Source of the DNA: an uncultured virus (IMG/VR IMGVR_UViG_3300021092_000032)
Lineage: Duplodnaviria > Heunggongvirae > Uroviricota > Caudoviricetes
IMG/VR virus record: IMGVR_UViG_3300021092_000032
Direction: 5' to 3' (one strand)
Length of the DNA: 64,000 bases
The translations under genes were made by a program, and so were the position numbers. Below, in pieces: positions 14,901 to 46,902 of this stretch. The notes beneath the pieces are model-generated. The model had not been told where the DNA came from, searched no databases, and was given only the letters and a program-made list of their open reading frames with translations. The stretch's first letter is position 1; each line of letters opens with the position of its first letter.

Positions 14901-15112
14901 GTTGCGCCAGTCTGCGGGTTGATGACGCAAGAAGCGCCACGCACTACGCCGCCATCCTTAAACAGGACATCGGTGAGGCGCTTCATGCGGTCGCTCATGA
15001 CCGCCTGAATTTCGTTCAGTTCTGCGGACTGCAGACCGCGACTGGCGCGGAACAGCAATTCGTCGTAACGCTTGGAAGCGTCAAATCGGTTGTAGTAGGC
15101 CTGGAGGGTCAT
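11939..15112 (-). CDS. Large baseplate/fibre-associated protein (DUF4815-like)
   Basis: YYNRFD..K.Y..LLF....LQSAELNEIQ N-terminus; DPLAQSF; GVLLSSSNN.TWT.HQ. Confidence 0.8.
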   Translation of the reverse strand: MTLQAYYNRFDASKRYDELLFRASRGLQSAELNEIQAVMSDRMKRLTDVLFKDGGVVRGASCVINPQTGATQLTAGAIYVLGAVREVAAKDLTIPTTGSLQIGVRVVTETLTELEDASLRDPAVGTRNYQEAGAGRTRRTISWGWSGDGGPGEFYSVYAVLDGVLVTQGVPPALDGVKQLLARYDRDANGSYIVNGLELIALGKNNGQTQYIFSVSDGVANVQGTKIDKPTATFLSYGIDPDLQQINNEPKSSAGTSTQTLTLNRKPLNAIQDVVITAQKTVNMTHGAFSGALDLLPNTAVLSIVQVKQGTTIYTQGTDYVLTSDHVDWSLPGAEPAPGSTYEVTFQHLTSVTPTNIDPDAGTFQITGAVASSLVLIDYNWKMPRYEVVALDPEGYFHRVKGVSSAFNPVVPLASAGQLQIASYYLDWYSTSTPKVFNDGTRVVSMREQRQMKDSIVELYNLVADERLQRDISSREPSSKYGVFTDPLLDNDLRDAGVAQDLAVVSQELQLAVIGTPVPAAQNNLTFNLLPYQEAPVVQVLQRTGQMAINPYMAFDPMPAIVTLNPAVDLWTITDEQTNFSTESFVFGSGDRSSTTVSTVTSLVSEANSAIQFLRERNVQFTVTGFDANEPVQQLVFDGRQLPVTGLTANLSGTITGTFAIPANVPSGSKRVEFIGQQGSYGAATYTGQGTLVVRRFQQTTTWTTWRWWSPPPPPPWRGWDPLAQSFVLETGRHVTSVDVKFAVKGGNNPVTVQIRTSDNGFPTSTTVVQASIPASAITTDNVFVKATFPFPVYLEGGVEYFIVLLTDDANHAVRVAEIGKYDSTTTRWVTAQPYTVGVLLSSSNNVTWTPHQDKDLTFRLNAAEFTNTTRTVNLGSLTVSNMTDLMAAAPIEQPSDQTRVTFRYTRSNGEVFSLAPYQALRFGTSISDTLQVEAILEGNQFESPTLYPGMISIPGTLDTSGIYQGREFQLSTGGTTMRVIFDAKITGSAAVTPQYFRNGSFQSLTLDKVVPIGDGFAEYVYKDTGITGLTATKIKLNMSGSAAFRPAVRNIRAVMV

Positions 15113-15119
15113 GGCAGCC

Positions 15120-15605
15120 TCAGAAGGTCAAGACGAACTCAAAGGTTTCGCGGGTCGCTGGTGTGCGGATGATTGCCGCCACATGCTCTAACAAGTAGAG
15201 GGTGCCTTGAGCGGTCACCTGCGACGGAGAGAAAAACATCTGACCAGGGGGCAAACCCTCGCCAGTTACCGCGTCGAGGAAGATCCCAGTCTCACGAATG
15301 GTGCTGCTGTTAATGTCCTCAAAGTCGAGGGTGAACCGCAGGTAAAGGTAGTTTGTCTGGGTCTGGCTTACGTCGTAGCGCCCGCTGGGCAGGACGATTG
15401 CGCCTTCAGCAGCAGGAATGACGAACGACACCTGAGCGGTTTTGCGGTAGCCCAGCGCAGACGCCAGCCCAGTTGAGCTGATGTTTTCAGCAGGGGTCCC
15501 GAGGGAGTCCCACTGAACATCGCCAGCGCCCACACCGAGAAAGATGTTCCGTGCGGCCACCGAGGCGGCTAAGCCCGCTCGGCCTGTTGTTACAAGGGTT
15601 GCCAT
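15120..15605 (-). CDS. Baseplate-associated structural protein
   Basis: Conserved homolog at 62462..62947; between the gpI-like and DUF4815-like genes. Confidence 0.7.
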   Translation of the reverse strand: MATLVTTGRAGLAASVAARNIFLGVGAGDVQWDSLGTPAENISSTGLASALGYRKTAQVSFVIPAAEGAIVLPSGRYDVSQTQTNYLYLRFTLDFEDINSSTIRETGIFLDAVTGEGLPPGQMFFSPSQVTAQGTLYLLEHVAAIIRTPATRETFEFVLTF

Positions 15606-15647
15606 TAGGCCATGGCCTCCTGAGTCGTTGTCATTCTATGCGTAAGT

Positions 15648-18311
15648 CTAGATGTGGGTTGAATGACGGGTTTCAATGCTGAGTGAGGTTGGGTTCCACG
15701 GGATGAGCTGCGTTGCCCACATCGCCAAGCCTATCCAGTCTTCAGTGCCCTCGATCCAGGCTGCCTGGCCCCAGGAGGTAAGTTGCCACTCCTGCTCGGC
15801 ACCGTGGTTCCAGGTGTAGCCCGGCCCGTATTCGTACCAGGAGCCTGTGTCCCAGGTGCTCCAGGTGTACCAGTGCCATGTCGTAGGCAGCAGCGTGCGG
15901 ACATGCAATCGCGTCTCAAATGTGGCTGTGGTGTACGTGGCCCATGCAGTGTGGAATCTGGTGTTGCAGCCGGCCACTCTCTCAGTGAGCGACCACTCGT
16001 GGCCCGCCTGAATCCAGTCAGCTGCGCCCCAGTGGGTCTGATACAGCGGCTGACCAATCGCGGTTTCACAATGCTCACGACTAACAAAAAGAAACTCGCC
16101 GAACGCGACGTTGAACTCAGAGAGCAGGTGCTCACTAAGGAAGAACCGGTCGTCGAGTGCGCGGATTACTCGCTGTGTGTGACGCTCAACTACTTCGAGG
16201 TCGCCGCCCACAGGTTTGGCGACAAGATCTTCAATCTGATGCGTCCTGTCAATACGAAGATTGCTTTCTGCTCCAAGGACCGCAAGGGTCTCACCTAGCA
16301 GCAAGCCATCAGAAAGGAACAAGTGCGCCTGCGGTTGACTGGTGACATGCACCGCACCAAGGCCATACCAGGTCGCGCTGTTTTGCCAGTCGCTGTCATC
16401 CCAGGTTGCAGGATGACGGACCAAGCCCAGGCTGCTGTAAGCATGTCCCCGGCTGACTGAGCCAATGTCGACGATCGTGCTGAACTCACCGATACGGTGT
16501 TGATCAAGCAAGAACTGATCGTCGAGGCCATCAATGACACGCTGATGTTCCCGCGTAATTGTGGTCTGAATGCCTCCTATCGGATCTGGGTGCGGATCGA
16601 AGATGTGGTGGAAGCGTTCGAACACCTCATCGACCGCAACCCAAACGGAAGAAACAAGGTGCTGTGACAATCTGTTAAGACCGCTGGCCTGATACTCCGC
16701 AGCAGGAAGCACAAGAAGCGCGTTGCTTACGTGCTCGGAGAGGATCCCCGATCCACTGTCAGCGTTGCTATCGCTGAGCACAAGAACACCCTGCCCGCTT
16801 TCCTGGAGGTAGCCGTAGTCCGCTAGAGCGTCGTAATCGGCGGCAGTAATCGCTTGGCTTGGATCCGCTTCTGAAAGCAAGAACGGGTCATAACCGATCT
16901 CCAGCTCTTCAGCGACGTTGAAGCGTGTGTTGGTCTCGCCCAGGGGCTGACCCTCGGAAAGATAAATGCCGGCTTTGCTGTCGGTCCTGTTGTTGACGAA
17001 TAGAAGCGAGCCAAGCCACCACGTACCCTGATTCCAGGAAATTGCCTCCCAGGTGTCTGGCGTCTCGGTTGTTGCCGCACGACCCAGCATGTGATTGCGG
17101 GTGATTGCAGCGCGATCAGAAACCAGTTCCCAATCGCTGAGCAGGTGCTGATCCAGCAGGAACTGGTCATCGAGACCATCAACCAGGCGACGATGCTCGC
17201 GTTTGATGCAGACGTGGCTGGCAACGTCTGCCGCCGCGACAAACACAGTCGAGTGATCCCGATCGAAGCGTTCGTTGATTTCTTGATAGGCAACGCTGCG
17301 GACGTGCTCGCTGAGCAGGTTCTCGCCTGTCGTCGGGTCGCCTTCGGAAAGCAAAAACGCACCAACGCCGGTCTCGACCTCGATGAGTGCTGGCAGGACT
17401 GTATTGGTCTCGCCCAGGATGCACTGATCGCTGAGGTAGACGCCCGCCTTGGCAAACTTAAGCGCAGGCTGTATCCGGTTGACCAGTCCGGCCCAATCAA
17501 GCCCCTGATCCCAGGCGTAGTTTGTCCAGGTGCTTGTCGGTTGCCACCATGGCCCCGCTTCGGTGAGATGGCCACGGCTAATTACCGCGCCCATGTTCAC
17601 CATGTGCCATTCGCGCCATACCAACTCACTGAGCTGGTTAACGTCGAGGATCATTCGATCCTCATACCAACCTTGATCGGTGTGGGTACGTTCTACGCTG
17701 CTAGTAAAGACAGCAGCGTCAGTGAAGCTGGCGCTTTCCTGAAAAACGCGCCCGAAAGAAAGCTGCGGCCAGTCTTCTCGGAGGTACACTCCGGTGTGGT
17801 CGCACAGCCAAGAGCCACCGCTTAGGACGTGATCGTCGAGCTTTAGACGGCGATGGTCATATCCGCCATAAATGCGGAACAGCCGCGAGCGGATTGGAGC
17901 TGAAAGGCGCGAAACCTGAATGACGTTGTTGGTAAATTCAAGGTTTGGCGGAGCTTGGTCGAGGCCGAGCTGAAAGTCGGCCCAGCGAAGCGTGCCTGCT
18001 TCCGACTCTTCGATTTCTGCATCAAATCCAATCCAGCTCAGGCCAATTCCAATCGCAGCACGTGTGCCGCGCAGGCGTTGCCATTGAATGCCTTTTGCTA
18101 GCGCCTGTCGCAGATCAGGCACATAGGGCAAAATTTCGCCTAAGCCGTATTCATAGATGAGCCAAGGCACCACCGAATCGGGTATGTCCTTGCGCTTTGC
18201 ATCGCGGATCCGTTGAACACCAGGGCCTAGCCGGGGAAGAAAGTCGCCGGAACGGGAAAGATCCCGCTCAAGCTGCGTCGAGTTACTTGGCAGGAGATCC
18301 GTTGCGGTCAT
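15648..18311 (-). CDS. P2 gpI-like baseplate wedge protein with long Trp-rich repetitive extension
   Basis: N-terminal LLPSNSTQLERDL...VPWLIYEYGL...RLRGT; follows gpJ. Confidence 0.78.
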   Translation of the reverse strand: MTATDLLPSNSTQLERDLSRSGDFLPRLGPGVQRIRDAKRKDIPDSVVPWLIYEYGLGEILPYVPDLRQALAKGIQWQRLRGTRAAIGIGLSWIGFDAEIEESEAGTLRWADFQLGLDQAPPNLEFTNNVIQVSRLSAPIRSRLFRIYGGYDHRRLKLDDHVLSGGSWLCDHTGVYLREDWPQLSFGRVFQESASFTDAAVFTSSVERTHTDQGWYEDRMILDVNQLSELVWREWHMVNMGAVISRGHLTEAGPWWQPTSTWTNYAWDQGLDWAGLVNRIQPALKFAKAGVYLSDQCILGETNTVLPALIEVETGVGAFLLSEGDPTTGENLLSEHVRSVAYQEINERFDRDHSTVFVAAADVASHVCIKREHRRLVDGLDDQFLLDQHLLSDWELVSDRAAITRNHMLGRAATTETPDTWEAISWNQGTWWLGSLLFVNNRTDSKAGIYLSEGQPLGETNTRFNVAEELEIGYDPFLLSEADPSQAITAADYDALADYGYLQESGQGVLVLSDSNADSGSGILSEHVSNALLVLPAAEYQASGLNRLSQHLVSSVWVAVDEVFERFHHIFDPHPDPIGGIQTTITREHQRVIDGLDDQFLLDQHRIGEFSTIVDIGSVSRGHAYSSLGLVRHPATWDDSDWQNSATWYGLGAVHVTSQPQAHLFLSDGLLLGETLAVLGAESNLRIDRTHQIEDLVAKPVGGDLEVVERHTQRVIRALDDRFFLSEHLLSEFNVAFGEFLFVSREHCETAIGQPLYQTHWGAADWIQAGHEWSLTERVAGCNTRFHTAWATYTTATFETRLHVRTLLPTTWHWYTWSTWDTGSWYEYGPGYTWNHGAEQEWQLTSWGQAAWIEGTEDWIGLAMWATQLIPWNPTSLSIETRHSTHI

Positions 18312-24728: not shown

Positions 24729-26222
24729 TTACTCATCTTCAGGCTCGTCAGCCGCCGGCGCTGCAGTGTTGGCCTGGGCTGCGCTGTTTAACTGGCCGCT
24801 GCCGCTGACCTGCCGGGGGTCGCTGTCCAGGATAAGGCCTAGGCGGTCCAGGGCTTCGTTGTCCTCAGCCATTTCGTCGAAGACTTCTTCAGGATCATAA
24901 CCAAACTCACGGATAGCTTCGCTAAGCGACAAGAAACCGGCACGTACTGCCTTTTTCGTTGCTTCAATTTCTTTGGCCGGGTCAATCAATTCGCGGCGCG
25001 GGGGCGTCCAGTGTGCAACGATGCCCTCCAACCGCACGCCGTTAACGCTGCCAGCTTGCACAAACCAGTTCCAAATCGGGCTGAGCATTTGGGGAACCAG
25101 CATTTGCCATCGCCAGGCTTCAATATTGCGGTGGAACTCCAGCCAGCCCATGCGGCCGCTACTAAAACTGGTGTTACTCAAATCGCCGGTTAGTGCTTCG
25201 TATGTGACACCGTAACCTGCTGCGATTTGCAGCAAGTATTCGCGTGTAATTTTGTCAAACTCGCCAACGCTGGGCGGCGATGCAAAACGAATATCTTTGC
25301 CAGGGGGCAGGATTTCAAGCGCACCGGGCTCCAGCTTGTCAATCAGTTCGGCGCCCATGCCTGCGTCGGGCGCTTCGGTGTCCACCAGGAATCCGGCAAA
25401 GCAAGCAGAAATCTTTTGCTTAAGCAACTGCGCATCACTGTAGTCATCAAAATCACGCAAACGAATGATCACCGGGGATGCCCAGGGAACCCCTCTGGTT
25501 TGATGTGGGCGGTCCTGCCGGAATACATGAATGATCTGGTCAGTGCCTACAAAGCTGCTACCAAAGCCGCGCACCCTTACATGATTTTCACCAGGGTGTT
25601 CGTCATACAGCCAATAGCCAAGGCGGCGGCCGTTGGCGTCATGCTTTATGCCCTCCCGCGTGAAGCTGCCGTCATCACCAGCGCCGTCGTGGGAGTCATC
25701 CAACATGTCTGGCTCCATGATCTGCAGCTGCAGGGGCACCCGCTGATTACTGCTGCTGATGGGGGTTCGCCGGCGGATCAGGACTTCACCAGATTCCACC
25801 ACGCAACGCATCGCCAGGGCTTGCAAGCCAGCAAAGTCCATACGCCCGTGGTAGTCGCACTGTTGCGGGTCGTTGGCCCAGCTGCTCAGTAAATCAGTGA
25901 GCTGCTGACTGCGACGCCGACTGCGCACGGCGCGGGCCTGCCCGATGATGCCCGTGCCGACAGTGTTGCTGACAATCACTGCGACCGCTTTGGCAGCGTA
26001 TGGGTTGTTGCGCACAAGGTCGCGGCTGCGGTCGCGCAAGGTTTTCAAGGCTGGGCCGGCGGCTGCGTCGGCACTTGTGCCCTGCGTCAGCCAGCCTTCG
26101 GTACGGCGGCCCCGGCTGGCGCCGTCATAGCGGCGCAAGGCGTCAAGCTGCAGGCGGGCACGCTGCCGGCGGAGTGCAGCTTGCGGGTTGACGCTGGCAA
26201 TGATCTGATCCAGCGCGTTCAT
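24729..26222 (-). CDS. Portal protein, lambda family
   Basis: YDGAS.GRR..GW, LR.RSRDLVRNNPYA, R..Q.RGVPW, YE.LTGD.S..SFSS.R, IDP.KE. Confidence 0.93.
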   Translation of the reverse strand: MNALDQIIASVNPQAALRRQRARLQLDALRRYDGASRGRRTEGWLTQGTSADAAAGPALKTLRDRSRDLVRNNPYAAKAVAVIVSNTVGTGIIGQARAVRSRRRSQQLTDLLSSWANDPQQCDYHGRMDFAGLQALAMRCVVESGEVLIRRRTPISSSNQRVPLQLQIMEPDMLDDSHDGAGDDGSFTREGIKHDANGRRLGYWLYDEHPGENHVRVRGFGSSFVGTDQIIHVFRQDRPHQTRGVPWASPVIIRLRDFDDYSDAQLLKQKISACFAGFLVDTEAPDAGMGAELIDKLEPGALEILPPGKDIRFASPPSVGEFDKITREYLLQIAAGYGVTYEALTGDLSNTSFSSGRMGWLEFHRNIEAWRWQMLVPQMLSPIWNWFVQAGSVNGVRLEGIVAHWTPPRRELIDPAKEIEATKKAVRAGFLSLSEAIREFGYDPEEVFDEMAEDNEALDRLGLILDSDPRQVSGSGQLNSAAQANTAAPAADEPEDE

Positions 26223-26419
26223 TTGTAGTCCCTCTGCGTGCTGAAGTATTTGCGGCTGCGGGTGCCTTGCCCAAGGCGTGCGCGGATCATGTCGCGCACC
26301 TTGAACAGTTCATCCAGGCTGCGGTATTGGACCTCTTTGTCGTCGTAGCGGACCCTGAGGTAGCCGCTTGCAATGGCTTCTTCGATCGCGGCGAGGCCGG
26401 CTTGGCTGAACATGGACAT
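26219..26419 (-). CDS. Head completion protein (lambda gpW-like)
   Basis: L.AIEEAIASG..RV.Y....V.YRSL.EL; between terL and portal. Confidence 0.82.
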   Translation of the reverse strand: MSMFSQAGLAAIEEAIASGYLRVRYDDKEVQYRSLDELFKVRDMIRARLGQGTRSRKYFSTQRDYK

Positions 26420-26449
26420 TCGATCAACCTCCTTGAGTCATGTTATCGG

Positions 26450-28333
26450 CTAAAGGAAGGTGCTTTTGCGCCGTTTGACCGTGGTTTCGCCTGGTTTGCT
26501 GCTGGTTTGCGCTGGTTTGGCAGAGCTGCCTGACGTTAGCCCACGCTCATGCTCCCATCGCGTCGCGTCCCAACGGTCAGCACCGACAGCCATTGCAGCG
26601 GCCCTGGCGTATACGCGGCAATCAAGGGCTTCATTGCGGTCGCGGGTTTTTTCCCACTGGTATTTCTGGTAGCCGCGCACCACCCGGCTTATCAGGGCCT
26701 CGGCTGTCAGTTGCTTGAACCACTCTTCCGGGTGCTGCGGAAAGTGACACCAGCCGAAAGGCAACCCGTCATCCAGGTTTTCAGGCAGTTTCCGGCGCAG
26801 CCAGCCGTACAACTCAGACTTAGCCACGCTCACGCCCACGGGCCAAACTTTCACGCCGCCCCTAATGCGCTTGCCACGGATCGTCACTTCAACTGGCGTC
26901 GGCGGGCTAATGATCGTGGCCTGCTGTTCACGGCCTTTTACGGCCATCACCCGCATGGCGCTCTGGCGATGCACCCAGCGATAAACCTCTTGCGTGCGGA
27001 ATCCGCTGTCAATGGCCGCCATGCGTATAGCCACAGTCATGCCGTCTTCACGGGTGTATTCGCGCTGCACCTGCCGGCTCAAGTCTTCCCAAACAGCGTC
27101 GTCGGCCGTATCGCCATGTAAAACCACAAAATCGACAGACCAGCTTTCAAGGTTTGGGCCCCAGGCCACGACTTCCATTTCCAAGCGATCTTTCTGTACG
27201 TCAATACCTGCGGTGAGGAACGCAGCGGCATCCGCCACTTGACCTAAGGGGTAATTCTCACGGCGGCCATACAACACTTCCCAGTCAGGGGCTTCGCCAG
27301 TGTCCGCATAAGTAAGGCCGAGCACCGTGTTTTGAAACACGCGCATCGCCTCGTCAGATTTCTGCGCCTGCATAAATGCTTCAACGCAATCACGCCAACT
27401 AAACCACCCGAGGGGTGAATACAGCGAACTGATGTGGTAGCCGCGCCACTTGCCTTCCGGGTTCTCTGGCACCCATTGGCCCTTTGGCAGGATGGCGTTC
27501 TTGTGGTGTTCTTCAAAGAGTTCGTCGCAGTGGACGCACTGGTAGCGGACGGTTTCAGGCCGCCCGTTTTCCCACTTCATTTGCTCCCAGACCAGCTGCT
27601 GCAACGTGCCGCAGTGCGGGCAAGGCACCTGGAAAAACCGCATGTCGCTATCCACAAACTCGCGCTCAATACGGCTACGGCCGGCCAGCGTGGGAGTGGA
27701 AACGTAAAAGATTTTGCGCCTGCTGAATGTCCTTGTGCGGGCCTCGGCCAAAGTGCAGGGGTCACCTTCCCCGTCCACGTCGCCGGGGTATGCATCAGGT
27801 TCGTCCAGGAAAAGGAAACGGACCGGCATTGAACGCAGACCGGCGGCGCTGTTGGCGCCCGCCATGACAACCACACCACCTGGAAATTCTTTGGCGAGCA
27901 GGCTGTTTCCGCTGTCCCTGCTGCGGGGGTCACGCACCTTGTCTCGCAGGGTTGGGCTTTCTTCAATCAATGGGGCGATGCGCGTTTTGCTGTTGCGCTT
28001 TGCCATCTCAACGGTTGGCTGCACCATCAGCATCGGGCCTGGACAGTTGTCGATGCAGTAGCCGAGCCAGTTGTTGCCGGCCTCAGTGCCGCCCACCTGG
28101 GCGCCTTTCATGAACACGACTTTTTCTATCGGGCTTGTGGCGCTCAGGCAGTCCATGATTTCCCGCAGATACGGCGTCCGCACGGTGCGCCAATGGCCGG
28201 GCTCCGCGCTGGCTCGCTGGCTCAGCATCCGATGCTTGTCAGCCCATTCACTGACGGTCAGCAGCGGATCGGGGCGGATGGCATCCTGGGCAGCGGCCCA
28301 CACGACCGCCATGCCGTTAGAAAGGGCCATCAC
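26450..28333 (-). CDS. terL: Terminase large subunit (lambda gpA family)
   Basis: P..LTVSEWAD, TPYLREIMD, KGAQVGGTE, LDE.D.YP, STPT, GIDVQKDR, IDSG, NEALDC.VYA. Confidence 0.95.
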   Translation of the reverse strand: MMALSNGMAVVWAAAQDAIRPDPLLTVSEWADKHRMLSQRASAEPGHWRTVRTPYLREIMDCLSATSPIEKVVFMKGAQVGGTEAGNNWLGYCIDNCPGPMLMVQPTVEMAKRNSKTRIAPLIEESPTLRDKVRDPRSRDSGNSLLAKEFPGGVVVMAGANSAAGLRSMPVRFLFLDEPDAYPGDVDGEGDPCTLAEARTRTFSRRKIFYVSTPTLAGRSRIEREFVDSDMRFFQVPCPHCGTLQQLVWEQMKWENGRPETVRYQCVHCDELFEEHHKNAILPKGQWVPENPEGKWRGYHISSLYSPLGWFSWRDCVEAFMQAQKSDEAMRVFQNTVLGLTYADTGEAPDWEVLYGRRENYPLGQVADAAAFLTAGIDVQKDRLEMEVVAWGPNLESWSVDFVVLHGDTADDAVWEDLSRQVQREYTREDGMTVAIRMAAIDSGFRTQEVYRWVHRQSAMRVMAVKGREQQATIISPPTPVEVTIRGKRIRGGVKVWPVGVSVAKSELYGWLRRKLPENLDDGLPFGWCHFPQHPEEWFKQLTAEALISRVVRGYQKYQWEKTRDRNEALDCRVYARAAAMAVGADRWDATRWEHERGLTSGSSAKPAQTSSKPGETTVKRRKSTFL

Positions 28334-28871
28334 TGCTAGCCAAAGCCTCGCAACAGCGGGCGAGTTCGCGTTGCATCACGATCTGCATTTCGTGGCGCTT
28401 GGCCGGCTCCACGTTGCCAATAATCGCGGCCAACTCGTTCACTATGCGGACAGGGATGTTTTGCACTGCATCGCGAAACGTGCGCACCATCTTGAACGTT
28501 CCCATCTTTACCTCATCCACGCGCACGAGCTGCCCGGCTTTTTCCCGGTACTCCATCTCCAATAGTTTCGCCTTGTAACCTTCCCCGTAAGCGCGTGCCT
28601 TGCTGTAATCAATTGACTGCATACCATCAGTGCCGGTAGTCAGCAGGCCCTGAGCTGCAGCCTTGCCAGTGTTGATCTGCTCGGCCGTGCGCTGCTGCGC
28701 CTGGCTTGTATTGCGGCGCCACTCCACATCAGCGGCAGCCTGGTCAATCTTGGCGTTGCGCCCTGTGTGGGTCACGGCCTGCCGCAACCGCCCATCTTTG
28801 ATGGCTTTGCGCACCGCCTGCGGGCTGACCCCACGGTGCGTGGCGTACTCAGGAATTGAAAGCATCATCAA
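28317..28871 (-). CDS. terS: Terminase small subunit
   Basis: N-terminal HTH (EYA.HRGVS.QAVRKAI..GR), G.LV...V coiled segment; overlaps terL. Confidence 0.8.
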   Translation of the reverse strand: MMMLSIPEYATHRGVSPQAVRKAIKDGRLRQAVTHTGRNAKIDQAAADVEWRRNTSQAQQRTAEQINTGKAAAQGLLTTGTDGMQSIDYSKARAYGEGYKAKLLEMEYREKAGQLVRVDEVKMGTFKMVRTFRDAVQNIPVRIVNELAAIIGNVEPAKRHEMQIVMQRELARCCEALASSDGPF

Positions 28872-29257
28872 TCATGAAACCCAGTGATGAACGGCACGGC
28901 GCGGCAGGTTGGCGCATCTTGCCAGGGGAATGCGATGGGCTGGCAAGCGCCTTCCATCTTGATAACGCTGTTCCATTGCTGGGTATCGCTGGCGTCCACC
29001 CAGAACCAGGCGTCCACGTCATAAAACTTAACAATAAGGTCGGGCAGCTGTTTACAGCTGGCAATCACCCCATCCACGAGCAACATCCCAGCCGCAGGCT
29101 TAGGCAACAGCGGCAGGTCCAGCCTGTGCGACAGCGCCACGGCCATGACCAATCCGGCGGGGCTGGCGCCATAGACGCCGCTGCGCCTGCCTTGGATGCA
29201 CTGCGCAGCGATCAGGTCAATAGCTGCATCAAACCCGGCCCAGCTGAGCTGCATCAT
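28868..29257 (-). CDS. Degenerate type I phosphoribosyltransferase-like protein
   Basis: SW..F...I...YG...GL..AVALSH.L.LP...LLVD...FPW resembles Gpt-type PRTases; PRPP loop altered (VDGVIASCKQL). Confidence 0.6.
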   Translation of the reverse strand: MMQLSWAGFDAAIDLIAAQCIQGRRSGVYGASPAGLVMAVALSHRLDLPLLPKPAAGMLLVDGVIASCKQLPDLIVKFYDVDAWFWVDASDTQQWNSVIKMEGACQPIAFPWQDAPTCRAVPFITGFHD

Positions 29258-29259
29258 CG

Positions 29260-30060
29260 TTAGTGCCCATAGAAAGCATCCAGCGCATACCAGACCAGGC
29301 TGTTCCGGTAGCCGCCTGGATGCGTTGGCACAATGGGCGTCACACCATGCAAGTTCCGCCACGCCGGGTAAACAAGAAGCGAGTTATCCGCGCTGTTGAA
29401 AGTGGTGTCGTAATCAGGGACGAACAGGTTGCCGCCGATGGCGTTGCGGCGCTTTGTGATGATTGCATTGATCCCACCCTTCACGTTCAGATTGTCTTGA
29501 TGCATCCGGGCGGCAATGTTGCAGTTGCTGATACTGCTGCTGAACAGCTCAGCAAAACGCCACTTCTCAGGCACGCGGCGCAGCACGGCTTCACGATGCA
29601 TTGCATACACCTCCGGGGCTGCCTGCTCAACAATGCCCAAGGCTTCTGTGCCGGCCTTGATCATGGCTTTGACAAAAGTGCGGGCGCTGGCCACGGTATG
29701 CACGGCGCTTCGGTTGGGATAGCCGCGCCTCATATGTGGTTTAGGCGGGATGCTGCCCAGAATGCATGAATACTGATCCACGATTCTGTACTGCATTTTG
29801 CCGTCAGGGCCTTTACCCATCGGCTGCTTCCGCTCCATCAGGCTCTTAGGCACGCGATCGCTGTTCAGCTCAGCGTCGGCAATGTTCACCAGGGCCTGCA
29901 GGCGTTCAGGCAGCTTGGCCAGGTAAAAGCCAATAGGCTTTCCCTCCTCCCCGATGAACATCGTGTCTTCAAACAAGGTTGGAGGCCGTTCGGCCGGTTC
30001 GTCATTGATCTTGAAGGCGTGGGCCACTTTCTGCAGATGGACAGTTTTCATAGTTGGCAC
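29260..30060 (-). CDS. TET/JBP-family 2OG-Fe(II) dioxygenase
   Basis: HQD (HxD), GGNL..PDY, LHGVTP (distal His), YRNSLVWY (2OG-binding Arg, RxSLVxY). Confidence 0.8.
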   Translation of the reverse strand: MPTMKTVHLQKVAHAFKINDEPAERPPTLFEDTMFIGEEGKPIGFYLAKLPERLQALVNIADAELNSDRVPKSLMERKQPMGKGPDGKMQYRIVDQYSCILGSIPPKPHMRRGYPNRSAVHTVASARTFVKAMIKAGTEALGIVEQAAPEVYAMHREAVLRRVPEKWRFAELFSSSISNCNIAARMHQDNLNVKGGINAIITKRRNAIGGNLFVPDYDTTFNSADNSLLVYPAWRNLHGVTPIVPTHPGGYRNSLVWYALDAFYGH

Positions 30061-30530
30061 AGCTTGCGAAAGTTGGCTTCGGATTCAGCAGGAGTTTCGT
30101 TTCTCCAAATGGCTTTCGGGCCAGGAAACGCTTTGAAAAAACTGACCCGGCTGCGCATGTTGGATGCGTATGTGTTTTCGTTCCAGCCACCGCTGCCGCG
30201 CTGCAACACCCGGCGGTAAACGACATCACGCGGCACGTTCAGCAGAATGCAAGCCAGGTCAAAGCCCATACCCTGCAGAACACCGATGTCCTTCTTGGCT
30301 GAGTAATACTGGCCAGCGATGACCAGCTTGCCGGTGTAGTTCTGCAGGCTGGCCCAGACTTCGGCCTTGCTGTCACCGCTCAGGCTGTCGGCACCAAATT
30401 GCTTACGGCCCAGAATGTCGAACTCCTGGCAGCGGCAAACGTAATTGGATTGCCCAACAAAGGCGGCCCGCTCAATGATTGTGCTTTTGCCGGCGCCCAT
30501 GGCCCCAGTCAAAAAAACTGCCTGCTTCAC
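30048..30530 (-). CDS. P-loop nucleotide-kinase-like protein
   Basis: VFLTGAMGAGKST Walker A near the N-terminus; R...R lid (YRRVLQRG); 160 aa. Confidence 0.72.
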   Translation of the reverse strand: MKQAVFLTGAMGAGKSTIIERAAFVGQSNYVCRCQEFDILGRKQFGADSLSGDSKAEVWASLQNYTGKLVIAGQYYSAKKDIGVLQGMGFDLACILLNVPRDVVYRRVLQRGSGGWNENTYASNMRSRVSFFKAFPGPKAIWRNETPAESEANFRKLCQL

Positions 30531-31156
30531 AGCTTGGCCTTCTCAGCGGCCAGCTTGTCAATCAGCATCATGCCGACGTAGCCACCTTGCGCACGCCAGA
30601 ACTTGACCAGCTCCTGGGCTTCTTCGTAGTGCTCAGGCTCAAATTCAATCTGTATGGCCTTCTTTACGTCACTTGCCATTTCGTCGAGCTGTTTGTCCAG
30701 GTCGTCCTCGCCGTCCAACACGCTGTAATCCAACTCGGCGCCAAAGCTGGGCAGGTCATCGCCCCAACCCAGCAAGGTCAAGTCAAACTCCAGGCCTTCC
30801 AGGTCTGCCAATTCAGCTTTCAGCAGTTCGTTATCCCAGCCAGCGTTCAGGGCCAGTTGGTTGTCGGCAATCACATACGCCCTGCGTTGCGCCGGGGTCA
30901 GGTGGTCTAGCACCACTACAGGCACCTCATCCAAGCCCAAAGCCTTGGCGGCCATCAGGCGGCCATGGCCGGCGATGATGCCAGCTTGCGTGTCGACCAG
31001 GACCGGATTTAAGAATCCGAACTCCACAATGGACGCGGCAATGCGGTTTACCTGTTCTTCGGAGTGGGTGCGCGGGTTGCGGTCATAAGGCACCAGCTTG
31101 TCGGCGGGCCAAACCTCAACTCGCTTGGCCATGGCTGGCTTGATGGAGACGGGCAT
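30527..31156 (-). CDS. ParB/Srx-domain protein (terminase-linked type)
   Basis: L.PY.RNPRTHS..Q...IA.SI.EFGF.NP.LVD...IIAGHGRL.AA..LG...VPV...AY.IADN. Confidence 0.88.
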   Translation of the reverse strand: MPVSIKPAMAKRVEVWPADKLVPYDRNPRTHSEEQVNRIAASIVEFGFLNPVLVDTQAGIIAGHGRLMAAKALGLDEVPVVVLDHLTPAQRRAYVIADNQLALNAGWDNELLKAELADLEGLEFDLTLLGWGDDLPSFGAELDYSVLDGEDDLDKQLDEMASDVKKAIQIEFEPEHYEEAQELVKFWRAQGGYVGMMLIDKLAAEKAKL

Positions 31157-31159
31157 GGT

Positions 31160-31560
31160 TTGGGCTAGGTGGGGTGGCTTGGCAAATGTTAGACACCCAA
31201 TAGGCCACAAAAGCAACCAAAGCGCAACCTCTAACGTATTGGTTTCCCTCGGCTTTCCGGTGGTTGCCGATTCATTGAAAATCTCCGCCAGCCTGTCAAC
31301 TTGCCTGCCATGGAGGGAGGCAAAGCGGCAGGCAAAATGACAGGCGAGTCTGTAATCCCTTGCGGCGCAATGCTTTTCGCAACCCGAAAAAACCGCTGAC
31401 ACTGGCCAAAAAACGGGAGCGTGGCGCCCGCAGGCTGGCCGGCCAGGGGGGACCCAACCCGGCGGGGGGGTGTGGGCAACAAAGGCAAGGGATGCCCCTG
31501 GGTTGCGCAGCGGACGCCCTGTGCCTTTGTGGGATGTGTGCAGGGGTTGCCCCCGACTGC
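31160..31560. other. Non-coding region upstream of the ParB/terminase cluster, candidate cos/pac region
   Basis: No credible gene; G/C runs (GGGGGGACCC...GGGGGGGTG at 31446-31476) and A/T tracts. Positional inference only. Confidence 0.35.
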
Positions 31561-31561
31561 C

Positions 31562-32122
31562 TTACCTGACAAACCCTGCAGACACCTTCTTGATGCCTTG
31601 CACAATGCCGTTCTGCAGTTGCTCCTCAATGCGCTGCTCAGTGGCTTGCTGGATGGCCCCTTTGTGTTTGCCACCTGTGTAGATGGCATGGATGGACGGC
31701 CCATGGACCACCCGCAGGGGCAGACGTGCCTGGCCCTTGCGCTTAAAAGGAAGGCCCTTGGCAATAAAGCCGCCCTTCACGATGCTGCGCTGGCCCTTGA
31801 AAATGGCAAGGGACAGGCCTTTGGCTGTTTCCTTTGCCTTGTACTGCATTGCCGTTATTGGTTTGCGGCTGGTCCTGATGATTGCTGTTTGCCCACCATC
31901 CCGATAGGTGGGCTGGGATACGTCTTGCTTAATGCGCCCTGCGCTGAGTGAGTACCGCTGGCCGACTTCCTTGGCGAGGGTAGTGCGCCCACCACGGGCG
32001 GCAATCTTTACGCCATGCTTCACAGCTTTTGGAATGTCCTGGGCAGACATGCGCTGCAGCGCGGCGACCAGCTCTTTGTCGCCAAGCACCCGAGCAGTGA
32101 GCCGAATGTCAATTTGTGCCAT
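31562..32122 (-). CDS. Minor tail/neck protein, lambda gpZ-like
   Basis: F.R.G..RLP...V.GPS motif; GGAGG RBS upstream. Confidence 0.7.
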   Translation of the reverse strand: MAQIDIRLTARVLGDKELVAALQRMSAQDIPKAVKHGVKIAARGGRTTLAKEVGQRYSLSAGRIKQDVSQPTYRDGGQTAIIRTSRKPITAMQYKAKETAKGLSLAIFKGQRSIVKGGFIAKGLPFKRKGQARLPLRVVHGPSIHAIYTGGKHKGAIQQATEQRIEEQLQNGIVQGIKKVSAGFVR

Positions 32123-32155
32123 TGAACGGGCCTCCTGTATCCAGGCTAGGGGGGC

Positions 32156-32215
32156 AGAGGCTTTCAGAGGTTCCTTGAGGGCCGCTGAGGTCTGTTGAGG
32201 TTTGTTGAGGTTTTG
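32156..32215 (-). repeat. Decamer array (6 degenerate units)
   Basis: GAGG every 10 bp on +, i.e. ACCTCA-type units on -. Confidence 0.85.
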
Positions 32216-32224
32216 CGCGTGCGG

Positions 32225-32470
32225 TGGTTACGGTGTGGTTACGGTCAGCGTAACGGATGTAAACCTTTGCGCCAGAAGGCTTTAGGTGCCATGCGTTACA
32301 CGTTACACCTATTTTTTAAGAGAGGTAAAAAAAAGAAGAAGGAGGGGCACACACACACACAGCACAAAGGGGGGCTATTGCGCCAGGTTGGCGTAACCGC
32401 TGCAACATACGCGAAAACCCCTGCACTGCAAGGGTTTTAGGGTGTTACACAGGGCGTAACTTGGTTACAG
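32225..32470. other. Putative replication origin (GTTAC/GTAAC iterons around an A/T-rich tract)
   Basis: About 9 GTTAC/GTAAC pentamers in both orientations, immediately downstream of the primase-helicase stop. Confidence 0.6.
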
Positions 32471-35056
32471 TGCCGCCAATGGCAAGCGTGTCGCGCGGGA
32501 TTTGGCCCCTGCGCCTTTGAAATGCACAACACCGGCCCGCTCAGCACCGGGCAAGCGTGCGAGCACCGTTGCCCAAGAATGGGCCCAGGCTGTGTCCTGC
32601 AAAATCGTCCGTATGGCCTGGGCAGTGTTGCTCACCAGGAGATGCCCTGTGTCCTCCACGCGAAGGCCATTGCGGCCTAAGGCAGCCTGCGCAAGGTTGG
32701 TACTAATGTCCAAGCTCATCTCGGCACCCTGCGCCAGCTCAACGACCTCGCCCAAAGTGCGGGTAAAAGTGCCGTGATCTGTCTCAATACGAATTTGATG
32801 CTGCAGCAGGCGCTGGATGCACTGCACCTCGTCGGGTACTTCAGTGGCCTGGCTGTAAGGCTCCCAGTCGTTGTCCTCAATCAGCGCACGGGCTTCAGCT
32901 TCGGTTGGGACATGATCATGCATCAATGCCCAGGCGCCGGCTAAAAGCGTGCCGTATTGGTCACCTTGGCGCTGGCTGTCAAAGGCATCAGCAGCTACGC
33001 GGGTAAACACGCGGCACGCTTGGCGGATCATTGGGATCAACGCCACAGTGCGAGCGATGAGCCGCACAGCAAACTCAGGCGTAATGGTTTTTTCTAGGTC
33101 GCGCTCTAAAGATTCCCAGTGGGCCTGGCGCTCATCCTTCGGTGTGTCATTGCCGTTGCGCAGTGTGAGTTGAGCAAACCGGGTGCGATCTGCGCCTTGC
33201 TTTAGTGCCGTCGTGATGGACGACATGAAGAACATGCTGCGGATATGGAAGCGTGTCACTTCCCCGCTCGGGCTGCCCTTCAGCATCTTGGCGTGCGACT
33301 CGCTACTGGCAACGCGGGCCAAAGCCAGCACGTTCTGCATCCTGTACTGGTCCTGTTTTTCGTTTGATTCGGCCTCATCAAACACCACAGGCAGCGCATC
33401 ACTGCGCAATGCCTGGCGCAAACCGGCTTCGCTTGTGTTGCCGGCGACGTTTAAGCCAAGGTCGGCCAGCAAAGGGGCCACAAACTTGTCCAGGATGGCG
33501 CTTTTGCCAGTGCCGGCGCCGCCTGTTAACCAAGCGTGCGGGCGCCAGTCCAGCGCACCGCAAATAGGCGCCAAAGTGGCCCAGCCAGCCAACAGCAGGC
33601 CAGAAGCTGGTACTTCCCAGCGAAATCGGCAGGCCAAGGCGGCCACCAGGGCAGCCTCATCGGCATTTAACGGGCAATGGCCGGGGCCCTCCAATGCCTG
33701 GGCGCGTTGGTACAGGTAACGCGACTGAAGCGCGGCCGTGATCGGCATGGTTTCACCATCAACGATCAAACGGTCGCCTAAATGCACAACAGCCCGGCCG
33801 GCATCGTGCCAAGCGCCCCTACCTCGTATGCGTTCAGGGCTGTAGACGCCAACGGCTGAGCACTGCTGGAACAGGCTGGCAGCTGCGGCCACCCATTTCA
33901 CACCTTCGCGACTGCCGGGGTACAGCGATTCCCAGAAGGGCAACGGGGCCAGCGCGACAAGGTTGGTACTGTTGTGGCTTGCGCGGCTCAAGCGCATCAC
34001 CTGGCCGGTGTTGTTTGGCTGGTAGTAATAATTTTCGCCGTCAAAGCCCAGGCACTGAAACGGCGGCGCTGAGTCAGGCTCAGCATCAGCGGCTGTGGCA
34101 GCCAGTGGGATAGCCCTGGGGGCCACATGACTGATATGGGCCGTTACCCAGGCGGCGGCCTGCTGCTGGGTCCACTGGGCGTCAGCCAGGTCCCAACCGG
34201 TTTTCCATGTGGGGCCGTTGGCAACGATGCGCACAGTGACCCCCGGCAGTTGCAGCAAACGCTGCCCCAACTCATCCATCGCCTGCTCACCTGGCGCATC
34301 GTGATCAGGCCAGAGCACAACCTTTCGCCCGGCAAGGGCGCTCCATGCTGTTTTGCTAATGGCCTTACAGCCGCCGGACCATGTGACGACCACAGCTTGC
34401 GGAAACAAAAGCGCGGCGGCGTCTGCTGTTTTCTCGCCTTCAACTACCAGCACATTGGCATCAGGCCGCTCGGCCAGGCCAGCCTCGTTATACAAAGGGC
34501 GGCTATCGCCCAACGGGGCTTTCCAGCTCCAAACAACACCATTCCAAGTCAGCGGGCGAATGGCTTTGCCGGCAAAGCGGCAAACGTAAAAAGTTGGGCT
34601 GTATTGCCAAACATGTTCAGCCCCACTGGTAGGAGGGGCAACAGGCGGCGCGGGTATGAACGCAGTTGAAGTCCCCTGAGGTCCCTTGAGGTCTATTGAG
34701 GTTCCTTGAGGCTTTGTGGCCGAGCGTGGCGCTGCAGCAGAAAGCCGTGCCGGGGCTTTTTCCGCACCGATACCCAGGTGTTCTTCAACAGCGCGTGCGG
34801 CTTGTTTGTAATCCCAGCCTTTGACGCGCATCAGCAGGTCCATACCGTTGCCAGCGCCGCCGTTCTGGTGTTTGCCGCCGCAACGGTTGCAAAACCAGGA
34901 TCCACTACCGTCCTTGTCATCAAACCGGTAGCGGTCCGTGCCGCCGCACAAAGGGCAAGGCTGATGCGCGTCAGTCAGTTGCTGGTCGGTGAGGCCGCCA
35001 AGACACGCCAAGATTTCCGGCCAGCGCCCACGGGCGGCCCGCACTAGGTCAGCCAT
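32465..35056 (-). CDS. Primase-helicase, P4 alpha-like (Zn-binding + TOPRIM + SF3 helicase)
   Basis: H.PCP.CGG.DRYRFDD..G.GSW.C..CG; VVEGEKTA, WPD.D..G; GGAGTGKS, DEAE. Confidence 0.88.
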   Translation of the reverse strand: MADLVRAARGRWPEILACLGGLTDQQLTDAHQPCPLCGGTDRYRFDDKDGSGSWFCNRCGGKHQNGGAGNGMDLLMRVKGWDYKQAARAVEEHLGIGAEKAPARLSAAAPRSATKPQGTSIDLKGPQGTSTAFIPAPPVAPPTSGAEHVWQYSPTFYVCRFAGKAIRPLTWNGVVWSWKAPLGDSRPLYNEAGLAERPDANVLVVEGEKTADAAALLFPQAVVVTWSGGCKAISKTAWSALAGRKVVLWPDHDAPGEQAMDELGQRLLQLPGVTVRIVANGPTWKTGWDLADAQWTQQQAAAWVTAHISHVAPRAIPLAATAADAEPDSAPPFQCLGFDGENYYYQPNNTGQVMRLSRASHNSTNLVALAPLPFWESLYPGSREGVKWVAAAASLFQQCSAVGVYSPERIRGRGAWHDAGRAVVHLGDRLIVDGETMPITAALQSRYLYQRAQALEGPGHCPLNADEAALVAALACRFRWEVPASGLLLAGWATLAPICGALDWRPHAWLTGGAGTGKSAILDKFVAPLLADLGLNVAGNTSEAGLRQALRSDALPVVFDEAESNEKQDQYRMQNVLALARVASSESHAKMLKGSPSGEVTRFHIRSMFFMSSITTALKQGADRTRFAQLTLRNGNDTPKDERQAHWESLERDLEKTITPEFAVRLIARTVALIPMIRQACRVFTRVAADAFDSQRQGDQYGTLLAGAWALMHDHVPTEAEARALIEDNDWEPYSQATEVPDEVQCIQRLLQHQIRIETDHGTFTRTLGEVVELAQGAEMSLDISTNLAQAALGRNGLRVEDTGHLLVSNTAQAIRTILQDTAWAHSWATVLARLPGAERAGVVHFKGAGAKSRATRLPLAAL
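34666..34712 (-). repeat. Decamer array inside primase linker (5 units)
   Basis: 10-bp period; encodes PQGTSIDLKGPQGTS. Confidence 0.85.
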
Positions 35057-39509: not shown

Positions 39510-39907
39510 GATACCTGGACAACGGCAAGATCGTTGCGAACTTTACTGTCGCCGTGCGGCAAAGTAAAAAGGAAGCGCCGGCGCGATGGGTCAAGGTTGC
39601 CATCTGGGGCAAGCCTGCTGAATACGTTGGCGACTACGTCCGCAAGGGCGACAGCGTGCTGCTCATGGGCCGCGTGGAAGCGCCTGAGGTTTACACGCGG
39701 AATGACGGCAGCACTGGCATCGCCGAAGTATTTGTCGCAGACAACGTTGAAAAGTTTGGCGAGCGCCAGCAGCAGGGCCAGGCTGCGCCAGCGCCCACGC
39801 GCACGCCACCGGAGCGGCCTGTGTACAAACAAGCTCCTCCGGTGGCTGCAATGGCCCCGCCTGTTGGTTTGCAGCAACAGCCCACGGACAACGACATACC
39901 TTTCTGA
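39458..39907 (+). CDS. ssb: Single-stranded DNA-binding protein
   Basis: LTGNLGRDPELRY, W..V..WGK.AE....Y..KG, C-terminal DIPF. Confidence 0.95.
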   Translation: MAYTAQLTGNLGRDPELRYLDNGKIVANFTVAVRQSKKEAPARWVKVAIWGKPAEYVGDYVRKGDSVLLMGRVEAPEVYTRNDGSTGIAEVFVADNVEKFGERQQQGQAAPAPTRTPPERPVYKQAPPVAAMAPPVGLQQQPTDNDIPF

Positions 39908-39947
39908 TCTGCATCTGGGCCCGCTTTGGCGGGCCTTGCCACCAATC

Positions 39948-40412
39948 ATGGACGCCGACTACATCACATGGCTACGCCGGCAGTACCGCTGTCAAGACGT
40001 GCTCAATCTTGTCCACTTGAGCGCTCTGGGCACCGGCTGGCACCGGCTGGCTGACCTGGCGGTGACCTTTGGCAGCCACGCTAAAACCACCAATCAATCG
40101 ATGCTCCGGTTACGCCGGCACGGCCTTGTCCAGTATGTGAGCTATGGCAAGGGCGGCACCTTTATATGGTGGTACAAGCGCCACCCAAGCGACCGGCCGA
40201 ACATTCAGAGAGACTGGCCGCGTTGGGTGCTGCGCGACACGACCATGCGCTGCAACCTGGAAGTGATGCTGGGTGAGCAGTCGCAACTGGCTGACCGCCT
40301 GCATTTGCACCCAGGCACAGTCCGTAACTTTCTTGCCGGCAGGACGCACCGCCTATTGGACCGTTACGAGCTGGTTTACGAGCCTGCCGAATGGCTGGCG
40401 CGGAACGGTTGA
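39948..40412 (+). CDS. Hypothetical, probable DNA-binding protein (winged HTH + HTH)
   Basis: LA..F......SM.RL...GLV and LADRLHLHPGTVRNFL patterns. Confidence 0.5.
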   Translation: MDADYITWLRRQYRCQDVLNLVHLSALGTGWHRLADLAVTFGSHAKTTNQSMLRLRRHGLVQYVSYGKGGTFIWWYKRHPSDRPNIQRDWPRWVLRDTTMRCNLEVMLGEQSQLADRLHLHPGTVRNFLAGRTHRLLDRYELVYEPAEWLARNG

Positions 40413-43423: not shown

Positions 43424-43936
43424 ATGTCCAGTCATGAGAGCTGCCCTTTGTGCTTCAGCAGCCACACGGATGTCGTTGAGTCGCGTTTGTGCAGCAACGG
43501 TACGCGCCGCCGCCGGCATAACTGCCTGCACTGCGGCCACCGCTGGACAGTTTGGGACGGTCAGCGTCCCAGCTTGGCTGCGATTGCTAGGCAAAAGATG
43601 AAGCCTCCCGGCCGCCAGAACACCGCCCGGCTTACGGCGGCACAAGTGCGGGTAGTCCTGCTGGCGCGGGACGTTACTCATTACGCAATGGCTAAACAGG
43701 TTGGCTTCAGCCCTGAAACCATTCGGCAGGTGCGTTATGGCGCCACTCATGCCAAGTTGCACCCTGAGATCGCCCGCTGGGCTCCACCAGCATCCGGCCA
43801 GGTTGTGCAACCTGCCAACAACGAGCCAAGCTGCTACGCCTGCTGCCACTGGAACGACCGCTGTGCCTTCGGGTTCCCAGACCCATTGCAGGAAGGGCCC
43901 GGCTTCGCGGCCGACTGCGACCTGTACGACACCTGA
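43424..43936 (+). CDS. Zn-ribbon (NrdR-N/Ogr-like) + HTH + Cys cluster protein, putative transcription factor
   Basis: CPLC...T.VVESR...RRRRH.C..CGHRWT; MAKQVGFSPETIRQVR; C..C.HW...C...C. Confidence 0.7.
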   Translation: MSSHESCPLCFSSHTDVVESRLCSNGTRRRRHNCLHCGHRWTVWDGQRPSLAAIARQKMKPPGRQNTARLTAAQVRVVLLARDVTHYAMAKQVGFSPETIRQVRYGATHAKLHPEIARWAPPASGQVVQPANNEPSCYACCHWNDRCAFGFPDPLQEGPGFAADCDLYDT

Positions 43937-45740: not shown

Positions 45741-45752
45741 AGGAATGCGTTG

Positions 45753-46827: not shown

Positions 46828-46843
46828 CAACCCACCCCCACAT

Positions 46844-46893: not shown

Positions 46894-46902
46894 TTAGCGC
46901 CG

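Follow-up and report, generated by a model that had tools for sequence, protein, structure and literature searches.

A 64,000-nucleotide (nt) stretch of DNA from an uncultured lake-water phage (IMG/VR record IMGVR_UViG_3300021092_000032; "the window" hereafter, meaning that entire stretch) carries, just ahead of its terminase genes, genes for a ParB-like protein, a small P-loop kinase, and a TET/JBP-family dioxygenase. We propose that these three genes constitute a single mobile DNA-modification cassette of an uncultured freshwater myophage, that this cassette would convert thymine (T) in DNA to 5-hydroxymethyluracil (5hmU) and the latter to 5-phosphomethyl-deoxyuridine (5-phosphomethyl-dU), and that a phosphoribosyltransferase (PRTase)-like gene lying between the cassette and the terminase genes stands outside the chemistry. 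We give this reading, taken as a whole, a probability of roughly 0.55.

In the route that we envisage, the TET/JBP enzyme, activated by its cognate ParB-like partner, would act on phage DNA after replication, hydroxylating thymine at its 5-methyl group to yield 5hmU; this step is modeled on published ParB-dependent T-dioxygenases. The P-loop kinase would then phosphorylate the hydroxyl of 5hmU to give 5-phosphomethyl-dU, a step suggested by its fold, by the gene order, and by the equivalence of its slot to that of other enzymes in related loci. Because no known amino-acid:DNA transferase was found among the scanned window ORFs, the pathway could end at the phosphorylated base, or some further enzyme yet to be recognized could use that base as its substrate. 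A narrower version, which we regard as possible but rather doubtful, makes the kinase the last step: the DNA packaged by phages with the ParB-kinase-TET genes would have a sequence-selected fraction of its thymines in the form of 5-phosphomethyl-deoxyuridine, with the kinase capping the base as an O-methyltransferase or glycosyltransferase would in sister cassettes. To our knowledge, 5-phosphomethyl-deoxyuridine, a negatively charged phosphorylated nucleobase, has so far been encountered only as a biosynthetic intermediate.

New here are the kinase-only form of the pathway, lacking a transferase, and a kinase family that lies outside the curated one. A first-pass annotation of the locus had considered the combination of genes not to be a characterized pathway. 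That view is out of date, as ParB-dependent T-dioxygenases (PMC13229309) and clusters of TET, P-loop kinase, and transferase genes (PMC8989533, PMC8256090) are described in the texts of published papers.

A compact gene run leads into the terminase genes

According to the list of open reading frames (ORFs), the genes for ParB, the P-loop kinase, the TET/JBP dioxygenase, the PRTase-like protein, and terS run head to tail on the minus strand. Their coordinates are given below with those of terL and of the gap upstream of ParB (aa, amino acids).

30527..31156, minus strand: ParB-like protein, 209 aa from ATG
30048..30530, minus strand: small P-loop kinase, 160 aa
29260..30051, minus strand: TET/JBP dioxygenase, 263 aa from ATG 30051; the ORF is open to GTG 30060 (266 aa)
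28868..29257, minus strand: degenerate Gpt-like PRTase-fold protein, 129 aa from ATG 29257; the ORF to GTG 29362 is 164 aa
28317..28871, minus strand: terS, small terminase subunit, 184 aa, TTG start; matches phrog_57 terminase small subunit, E 1.2e-31
26450..28333, minus strand: terL, lambda GpA type, 627 aa; 54–57% identity to Wolbachia WO and Ralstonia phage large terminases
31157..31561, no strand: non-coding gap 5' of ParB, ~400 bp; 19-nt inverted repeat at 31291–31345

Past terL follow a head-tail adaptor, a portal, and a protease-capsid fusion. Overlaps of 4 nt join ParB to the kinase gene, the kinase gene to TET/JBP (with the 30051 start), and the PRTase-like gene to terS (with the TTG terS start), and the PRTase-like ATG lies 2 nt beyond the TET stop codon. 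This matches the first-pass description of four overlapping or abutting genes running into terS: all are on the minus strand where it had placed them, and the motifs that it quoted (HQD, LHGVTP, and YRNSLVWY in the dioxygenase, Walker A and lid arginines in the kinase) are present in the ORF translations. Its statement that the cassette has no C5-methyltransferase or glycosyltransferase also holds, in that neither family was found in the cassette genes.

Two of the genes have alternative starts. For TET/JBP, ATG 30051 (263 aa) is more likely than GTG 30060, because a 100%-identical database protein (P0001) is also 263 aa long. The PRTase-like gene almost certainly starts at ATG 29257 (129 aa) and not at GTG 29362, because the shorter product equals database protein P0121, its start falls 2 nt past the TET stop, and the alignment with the purine PRTase structure 1vdm begins there. 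The ParB ORF could be extended to GTG 31402; its homologues are 190–201 aa long.

The gene arrangement is real and no assembly accident, because contigs from other lake-water runs, which may stem from one sampling campaign, span the cassette. They do so with a handful of substitutions; one contig of 16,014 nt (run X20) covers 26000–33000 with 13 differences.

ParB, kinase, and TET genes move as a unit with an exchangeable middle gene

We surveyed viral loci encoding relatives of the window kinase, taking in 5 kb on each side. ParB, kinase, and TET occur in that order in 15 of the 16, the sixteenth being a partial match without TET. Downstream of most of these trios come genes for a small protein (about 112–131 aa) and a terminase of ~404–430 aa whose type is unlike that of the window, and because most other trios thus precede a different terminase type, the trio moves as a unit. 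A 2013 article by Iyer et al. in Nucleic Acids Research (NAR) is said to have given the first account of TET/JBP-ParB-terminase neighborhoods and of the kinase and transferase families.

The position taken by the kinase is filled by other enzymes elsewhere. Across 77 loci bearing a TET gene of the same subfamily, the slot holds an FkbM O-methyltransferase in 40 and a TAGT glycosyltransferase in 30, ParB abuts TET with no middle gene in five, and two occupants are unnamed; many of these loci are near-duplicates, and the counts do not represent independent events. A kinase occupies the slot in three of the 81 loci of the TET survey that have an upstream gene (L003, L004, and L078), and L052 is cut by the end of its contig. 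By analogy among its occupants, the slot between ParB and TET appears to be one that holds enzymes acting on a hydroxyl, and because kinase, O-methyltransferase, and glycosyltransferase all act on such a group, we read the kinase as a putative 5hmU kinase. The alternation of FkbM and TAGT genes in L001 and L005–L085 would imply that aquatic viromes contain methoxymethyl-U and glycosyl-oxymethyl-U phages.

The small P-loop protein is predicted to phosphorylate 5hmU

The 160-aa protein carries the Walker A motif GAMGAGKST and lid arginines within RDVVYRRVLQRG. Its family is small, with nine further clusters. In a Pfam scan of 10 members, every match was to a P-loop family of kinase type (AAA_18 in 10/10, AAA_33 in 8/10, and Zeta_toxin in 7/10). 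When an AlphaFold2 (AF2) model of the protein (predicted local distance difference test score [pLDDT] 85.6) was compared with the viral models in BFVD, it matched the 5-hydroxymethyl-deoxyuridine (5-hmdU) DNA kinases of PhiW-14 (rank 5, E 2.6e-6, template modeling [TM] score 0.66) and SP10 (rank 9, E 2.7e-5), along with a Microbacterium phage "adenylate kinase." Alignment by hhalign with TET-linked kinases of actinophages gave probabilities of 78.6% for Tonitrus gp7 and 74.7% for Matzah gp3; beyond the P-loop, the window kinase shares a G-x-D-x-L motif with both. Sequence searches of PDB chains returned nothing useful for the kinase, and NCBIfam gave generic matches only.

We predict that the kinase phosphorylates the hydroxymethyl group of 5hmU in DNA, and the locus context is a stronger argument for this activity than the structural and profile likeness. 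The first-pass annotation had called a P-loop kinase at this position, a call borne out by the resemblance of the model to phage 5-hmdU DNA kinases and by the ParB-kinase-TET order of 15/16 loci. Separately, a 224-aa ORF at L163:4649–5323, with neither ParB nor TET nearby, is 79% identical to the window protein over 52 kinase-core residues and may represent a kinase fragment or fusion in another context. In Fig. 3 and Fig. S4 of PMC13229309, "AAA domain" genes are colored by PF13238, the family that the window kinase matches best, and the ParB-kinase-TET trio may be drawn in those figures without comment.

The dioxygenase belongs to the TET/JBP family and probably acts on thymine

Sequence comparisons support the product of the 266-aa ORF as a TET/JBP-family Fe(II)/2-oxoglutarate dioxygenase. 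Its sole Pfam match is Tet_JBP (PF12851; E 1.1e-7, 31.7 bits), a family matched by all 22 of its aligned homologues (best E 1.3e-10), and the residues of the iron triad (H187-Q-D189 and H238) and the 2-oxoglutarate-binding arginine R252 are invariant in these homologues. The first-pass annotation had proposed this identity and had named grouping with AlkB or prolyl hydroxylases as the outcome that would refute it; Pfam returned no match to either group from the window dioxygenase or from any of the 22 homologues.

The dioxygenase has many homologues (2243 clusters at E<=1e-5). Its closest cultured relatives are encoded by the Prochlorococcus siphoviruses MED4-184, MED4-117, and P-HS2 (56% identity), with actinophage TET/JBP genes next at ~30% and the Tonitrus "Tet-like J-binding protein" at 32%. 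Single-sequence searches of PDB chains with the TET protein gave nothing useful, the nearest virus record (G001) contained no TET match, and a scan of genome contigs with the protein found no relative. By analogy, we consider that the enzyme probably hydroxylates thymine in DNA.

The C-terminal domain of ParB travels with TET

The ParB-like protein has a ParB domain (PF02195) at residues 14–84 (E 2e-8) and no other Pfam domain in its 209 aa. PHROG ParB families match it at E 1e-52 to 1e-55, and it has a conserved GHGR box and a conserved C-terminal VKKAIQIEF block. Of the 85 TET loci surveyed, 77 have a ParB gene upstream of TET. In seven of the remaining eight, TET is near the start of the contig; the other is Tonitrus (L002), whose annotated ParB is too distant for the search.

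For these searches we divided ParB into its N-terminal 134 aa and C-terminal 75 aa. The C-terminal part was detected in 77/85 TET loci and 15/17 kinase loci, and in only two of 63 loci that share the phage backbone of the window (described below with the PRTase-like gene), these two being the near-identical copies that bear TET. The N-terminal part was found in 50/63 same-backbone loci carrying other cargo. Since the C-terminal domain is present in 77/85 TET loci versus 2/63 backbone loci, this domain travels with TET.

The text of PMC13229309 (O'Toole et al., PNAS 2026) describes a subclass of phage TET/JBP enzymes that hydroxylates DNA thymine only when co-expressed with a neighboring ParB homologue. 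As set out there, the activating ParBs need both an N-terminal nucleotide-binding domain and a C-terminal domain and have no evident DNA-binding domain, pairs of ParB and dioxygenase are cognate-specific, and ParB switches on dioxygenase activity toward double-stranded DNA. The text further associates this subclass with P-loop kinases, amidotransferases, and amino-acid:DNA transferases. By analogy with these pairs, the window ParB is a probable activator of the dioxygenase, and the movement of its C-terminal domain with TET fits and extends the published cognate-pair specificity. The first-pass annotation had instead suggested that ParB directs modification to the packaging site, an idea that gives way to the activating role on double-stranded DNA reported for such ParBs in that text.

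No amino-acid:DNA transferase is found beside the kinase

Known pathways proceed from 5-phosphomethyl-dU via an amino-acid:DNA transferase, as described in the text of PMC8989533 (Lee et al. 2021). Neither the Pfam nor the PHROG family of this enzyme (PF18724 and phrog_6364) was matched by the scanned window ORFs; as a control, Tonitrus gp6 matched PF18724 at 9.4e-23 and phrog_6364 at 3e-52. Outside the scan lay a 1057-aa ORF (11939–15112); its ~67%-identical counterpart at 59290–62454 encodes a tail protein of the DUF4815 family. Around the other kinase trios, the 5 kb on each side contained only small ORFs and terminase genes. A 292-aa ORF (39534–40412) was considered as a transferase candidate and rejected, having no similarity to the Tonitrus transferase and weak helix-turn-helix hints only.

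A degenerate PRTase-like gene is a fixed neighbor of terS

An AF2 model of the PRTase-like protein (pLDDT 84) gave 51 PDB matches at E<=0.001 in Foldseek, headed by XGPRT (6kqc, 4jls, and 1nul) and the purine PRTase 1vdm (E about 4e-6 to 1e-5, TM 0.65–0.73). The phosphoribosyl pyrophosphate (PRPP) loop reads LLVDGVIASCKQL, with the acidic pair and TG-T lost, and the RGG pyrophosphate loop is likewise lost, reading GASPAG. Both parts of the first-pass description, a Gpt-like PRTase outline and an altered PRPP loop, are thus confirmed, the former by Foldseek and the latter by a loop that has degenerated. Pfam matched no family at E<=0.1 with the 164-aa ORF, a PDB sequence search gave a weak hint of 1vdm only, and tblastn against cultured phages found no match to the gene. 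A profile search of 1.84 billion representatives recovered 614 relatives. The PRPP and RGG motifs are both gone in the seven closest clusters and both kept in 104 of the 152 relatives examined, and these 104 are ordinary small PRTases.

The gene lies immediately upstream of terS in 61 of 63 viral loci and upstream of a terL 51–81% identical to that of the window in 60/63; in 50/63, the ParB N-domain is encoded 0.4–3 kb further upstream. The DNA between ParB and the PRTase-like gene carries varied cargo (L088–L148), as identified from 72 proteins scanned in a de-duplicated subset of the loci: FolE/QueD/QueE/QueC/DUF6884 (7-deazaguanine synthesis) or Mom; a C5-methylase with an asparagine-synthase-like protein and an S-adenosylmethionine (SAM) methyltransferase; fusions of ParB with N6/N4-methylases; PAPS-reductase/DUF3440 with a cupin and a second ParB; and DUF4417. 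Several further cargo proteins of 417–420 aa have no Pfam match (L107, L128, and L146). The interval from ParB to terS is a swap site for DNA-modification cargo in related phages, and the PRTase-like gene is a fixed neighbor of terS at the edge of this variable modification island. Just two of the 63 loci (near-identical copies) also carry TET and the kinase. Conversely, only two of 16 kinase loci have the PRTase-like gene, which the other 13 complete ParB-kinase-TET trios lack.

Because the gene stands beside terS whatever the cargo, and with TET in 2/63 loci only, it is probably not a member of the pathway and would instead be a backbone gene of the phage lineage, its product a catalytically degenerate branch of a small-PRTase family. 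Our guess is that its product is a nucleotide- or base-binding pseudoenzyme. The main texts of PMC13229309, PMC8256090, and PMC8989533 do not contain the term "phosphoribosyl," nor do the supplementary files of PMC13229309.

A structural search of the ESM Atlas with the PRTase-like fold also returned, in row 6, a 277-aa viral cluster with ParB_N in all members (TM 0.74 by query). A fusion of ParB_N with a PRTase-like domain was not confirmed, as seven longer proteins scanned among the best 150 profile matches had leucine-rich repeats (LRR), Pribosyltran, or nothing.

Weighing the pathway against other explanations

Several findings weigh against the pathway proposed here, at each of its components. 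At its end point, we know of no purpose for phosphorylation without a subsequent transferase.

At the kinase, the 5-hmdU kinase family PF18751 is unmatched by the window protein at E<=1 and is reached by two of the 10 family members at E 0.07; BLASTP against the Tonitrus kinase aligns the P-loop only; and the PDB neighbors of the model are ordinary adenylate, guanylate, and polynucleotide kinases. The protein might accordingly be a nucleotide kinase, a polynucleotide 5'-kinase, or a packaging-associated nucleoside triphosphatase that merely travels with the cassette, a notion to which its best PDB matches (adenylate kinase-like proteins and the Clostridium thermocellum polynucleotide kinase) and a weak match to the "terminase small subunit" family phrog_800 (E 2.5e-5) lend some color. 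We consider this unlikely: in 15/16 loci the gene is flanked by ParB and TET, and the downstream terminases are of two different types; it takes the slot of an O-methyltransferase or glycosyltransferase; and two named 5-hmdU DNA kinases are among the viral structural neighbors of its product.

At the dioxygenase, the Tet_JBP score of 31.7 bits is below the Pfam cut-off of 34.9, and a profile of the family searched against PDB chain sequences found no solved TET/JBP (best E 0.27). Thymine as the substrate of the window subfamily is moreover an extrapolation by analogy, because the window enzyme is only 22–29% identical to ORFs that bear HQWHGNTP, an 8-residue motif of 5mYOX176; these ORFs come from 80 loci of 89 matches and are not necessarily 5mYOX176 itself, and 79/80 match at E<=10 (best 3e-7). 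The window ParB C-terminal domain was not found in the 80 motif-bearing loci, and the invariant motifs of the window subfamily occur in none of the constructs in Dataset S11 of PMC13229309.

In place of thymine, the dioxygenase could act on 5-methylcytosine (5mC) made by the host or by a distant phage methylase, giving 5-hydroxymethylcytosine (5hmC) and then phosphomethyl-C. Phage TETs of other clades oxidize 5mC, according to the text of PMC8256090, and the T-dioxygenases tested in PMC13229309, among whose constructs the window subfamily is absent, are reported there to oxidize 5mC iteratively as well. We nonetheless think a cytosine route quite improbable. No C5-methyltransferase (PF00145) was matched in the cassette genes or in 53 further window ORFs, and the cassettes of all 15 kinase trios likewise lack one. 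The ParB-associated clade described in PMC13229309 has no neighboring C5-methylase and hydroxylates T, and the missing neighbor is used in that text as an argument for T as the substrate.

At the PRTase-like gene, the objection to leaving it outside the thymine pathway is its placement, 2 nt after TET and overlapping terS. Because it is packed in this way, the gene is, to judge from the sequence, surely co-transcribed with the cassette, and its product could conceivably act with the cassette in this particular phage. That it is the last enzyme, adding another group to the base with phosphomethyl (or pyrophosphomethyl) uracil serving as a PRPP-like electrophile, much as the first-pass annotation had it possibly elaborate the base, would accord with its location directly after TET and before terS, with pyrophosphate displacement as the ancestral chemistry of its fold, and with the lack of any other transferase in the scanned window ORFs, but is very hard to credit in view of its occurrence with TET in only 2/63 loci, with the kinase in only 2/16, and beside unrelated cargo elsewhere, of the other 13 trios that do without it, and of the loss of its PRPP-binding and pyrophosphate loops.

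Other features of the window

No promoter-like site was detected in 28000–32600, and terminator-like sites occurred there at chance level. Between the tail-completion gene and ParB, the inverted repeat at 31291–31345 is 89% complementary with a 17-nt spacer and might be a regulatory or packaging site; it is the one 19-nt inverted repeat in 31100–31620, where the remaining repeats are short pairs of chance size.

The window as a whole holds two related, differing phage units in tandem, of which the first occupies ~46.7 kb (1–15700 corresponds to 46736–64000). Matching segments are 46736–46953 with 1–208 (94%), 48043–48695 with 1605–2257 (90%), and 59178–63040 with 11827–15698 (67%), and a separate P2-like tail module (sheath, GpU, GpD, tape measure, and DUF4815) is present in each unit. 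Tandem prophages could account for this arrangement, as could the co-assembly of two strains. Near their junction are encoded a protein resembling the Pyr_excise pyrimidine-dimer DNA glycosylase (E 7e-9; 45752–46363, plus strand) and an NrdR-type zinc-ribbon protein (43424–43936, plus strand). The tail-fiber region of the second unit encodes a 756-aa RCC1-repeat protein (57015–59285, minus strand).

Implications and comparison with known systems

If the proposed pathway is correct, the minimal ParB-kinase-TET cassette would be the simplest known route to a phosphorylated DNA base, needing three small genes and no rewiring of the nucleotide pool, and it would show whether 5-phosphomethyl-dU can be the end product in virions. 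The enzymes that alternate in the middle slot form a natural set of 5hmU "capping" enzymes for comparison. Annotators should not count the PRTase-like gene among the members of thymine-modification clusters.

The PRTase-like protein itself resembles XGPRT (E. coli Gpt, 1nul/4jls; Yersinia) and the Pyrococcus horikoshii purine PRTase 1vdm in its compact type I PRTase fold and C-terminal PW(Q/E) element, and differs from them in having gained conserved LTWxGFDxAxDxIAAQC, WxWVD, and C-terminal GF[DH]D motifs.

Among systems that modify thymine, 5mYOX clade C1 (5mYOX176 with ParB176), as presented in the text of PMC13229309, likewise places a dioxygenase beside a short ParB that has N- and C-terminal domains and no DNA-binding domain, lacks an adjacent C5-methylase, and is sited by the terminase; the window enzyme appears to belong to another subfamily, one not among the constructs tested there. 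The pathway of 5-HMUDK and amino-acid:DNA transferase described for PhiW-14, SP10, ViI, M6, and PaMx11 in the text of PMC8989533, including its TET/JBP-fed versions, also has a P-loop kinase beside a source of 5hmU; 5-phosphomethyl-dU would be the expected product in both cases, and the window kinase model resembles the PhiW-14 and SP10 kinases. In contrast to that pathway, the window has, among its scanned ORFs, no PF18724 transferase, pyridoxal phosphate (PLP) enzyme, radical-SAM enzyme, or flavin enzyme, its kinase is smaller (160 aa) and falls outside PF18751, and its 5hmU would arise after replication and not via a deoxyuridine monophosphate (dUMP) hydroxymethylase.

The actinophage gene sets of Microbacterium phage Matzah (genes 1–3) and Rhodococcus phage Tonitrus (genes 1–7) resemble the window in that genes for ParB, TET/JBP, and a small P-loop protein immediately precede the terminase, and their kinases are distantly like that of the window (hhalign 75–79%). 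Unlike the window, they have the order ParB-TET-kinase and a TET only ~30% identical, and Tonitrus adds a transferase (PF18724). The ParB-FkbM-TET and ParB-TAGT-TET cassettes (e.g., MED4-184, NC_020847) share with the window the TET subfamily (56% identity), ParB including its C-terminal domain, and the site before the terminase; the window differs from these in having a kinase as its middle gene.

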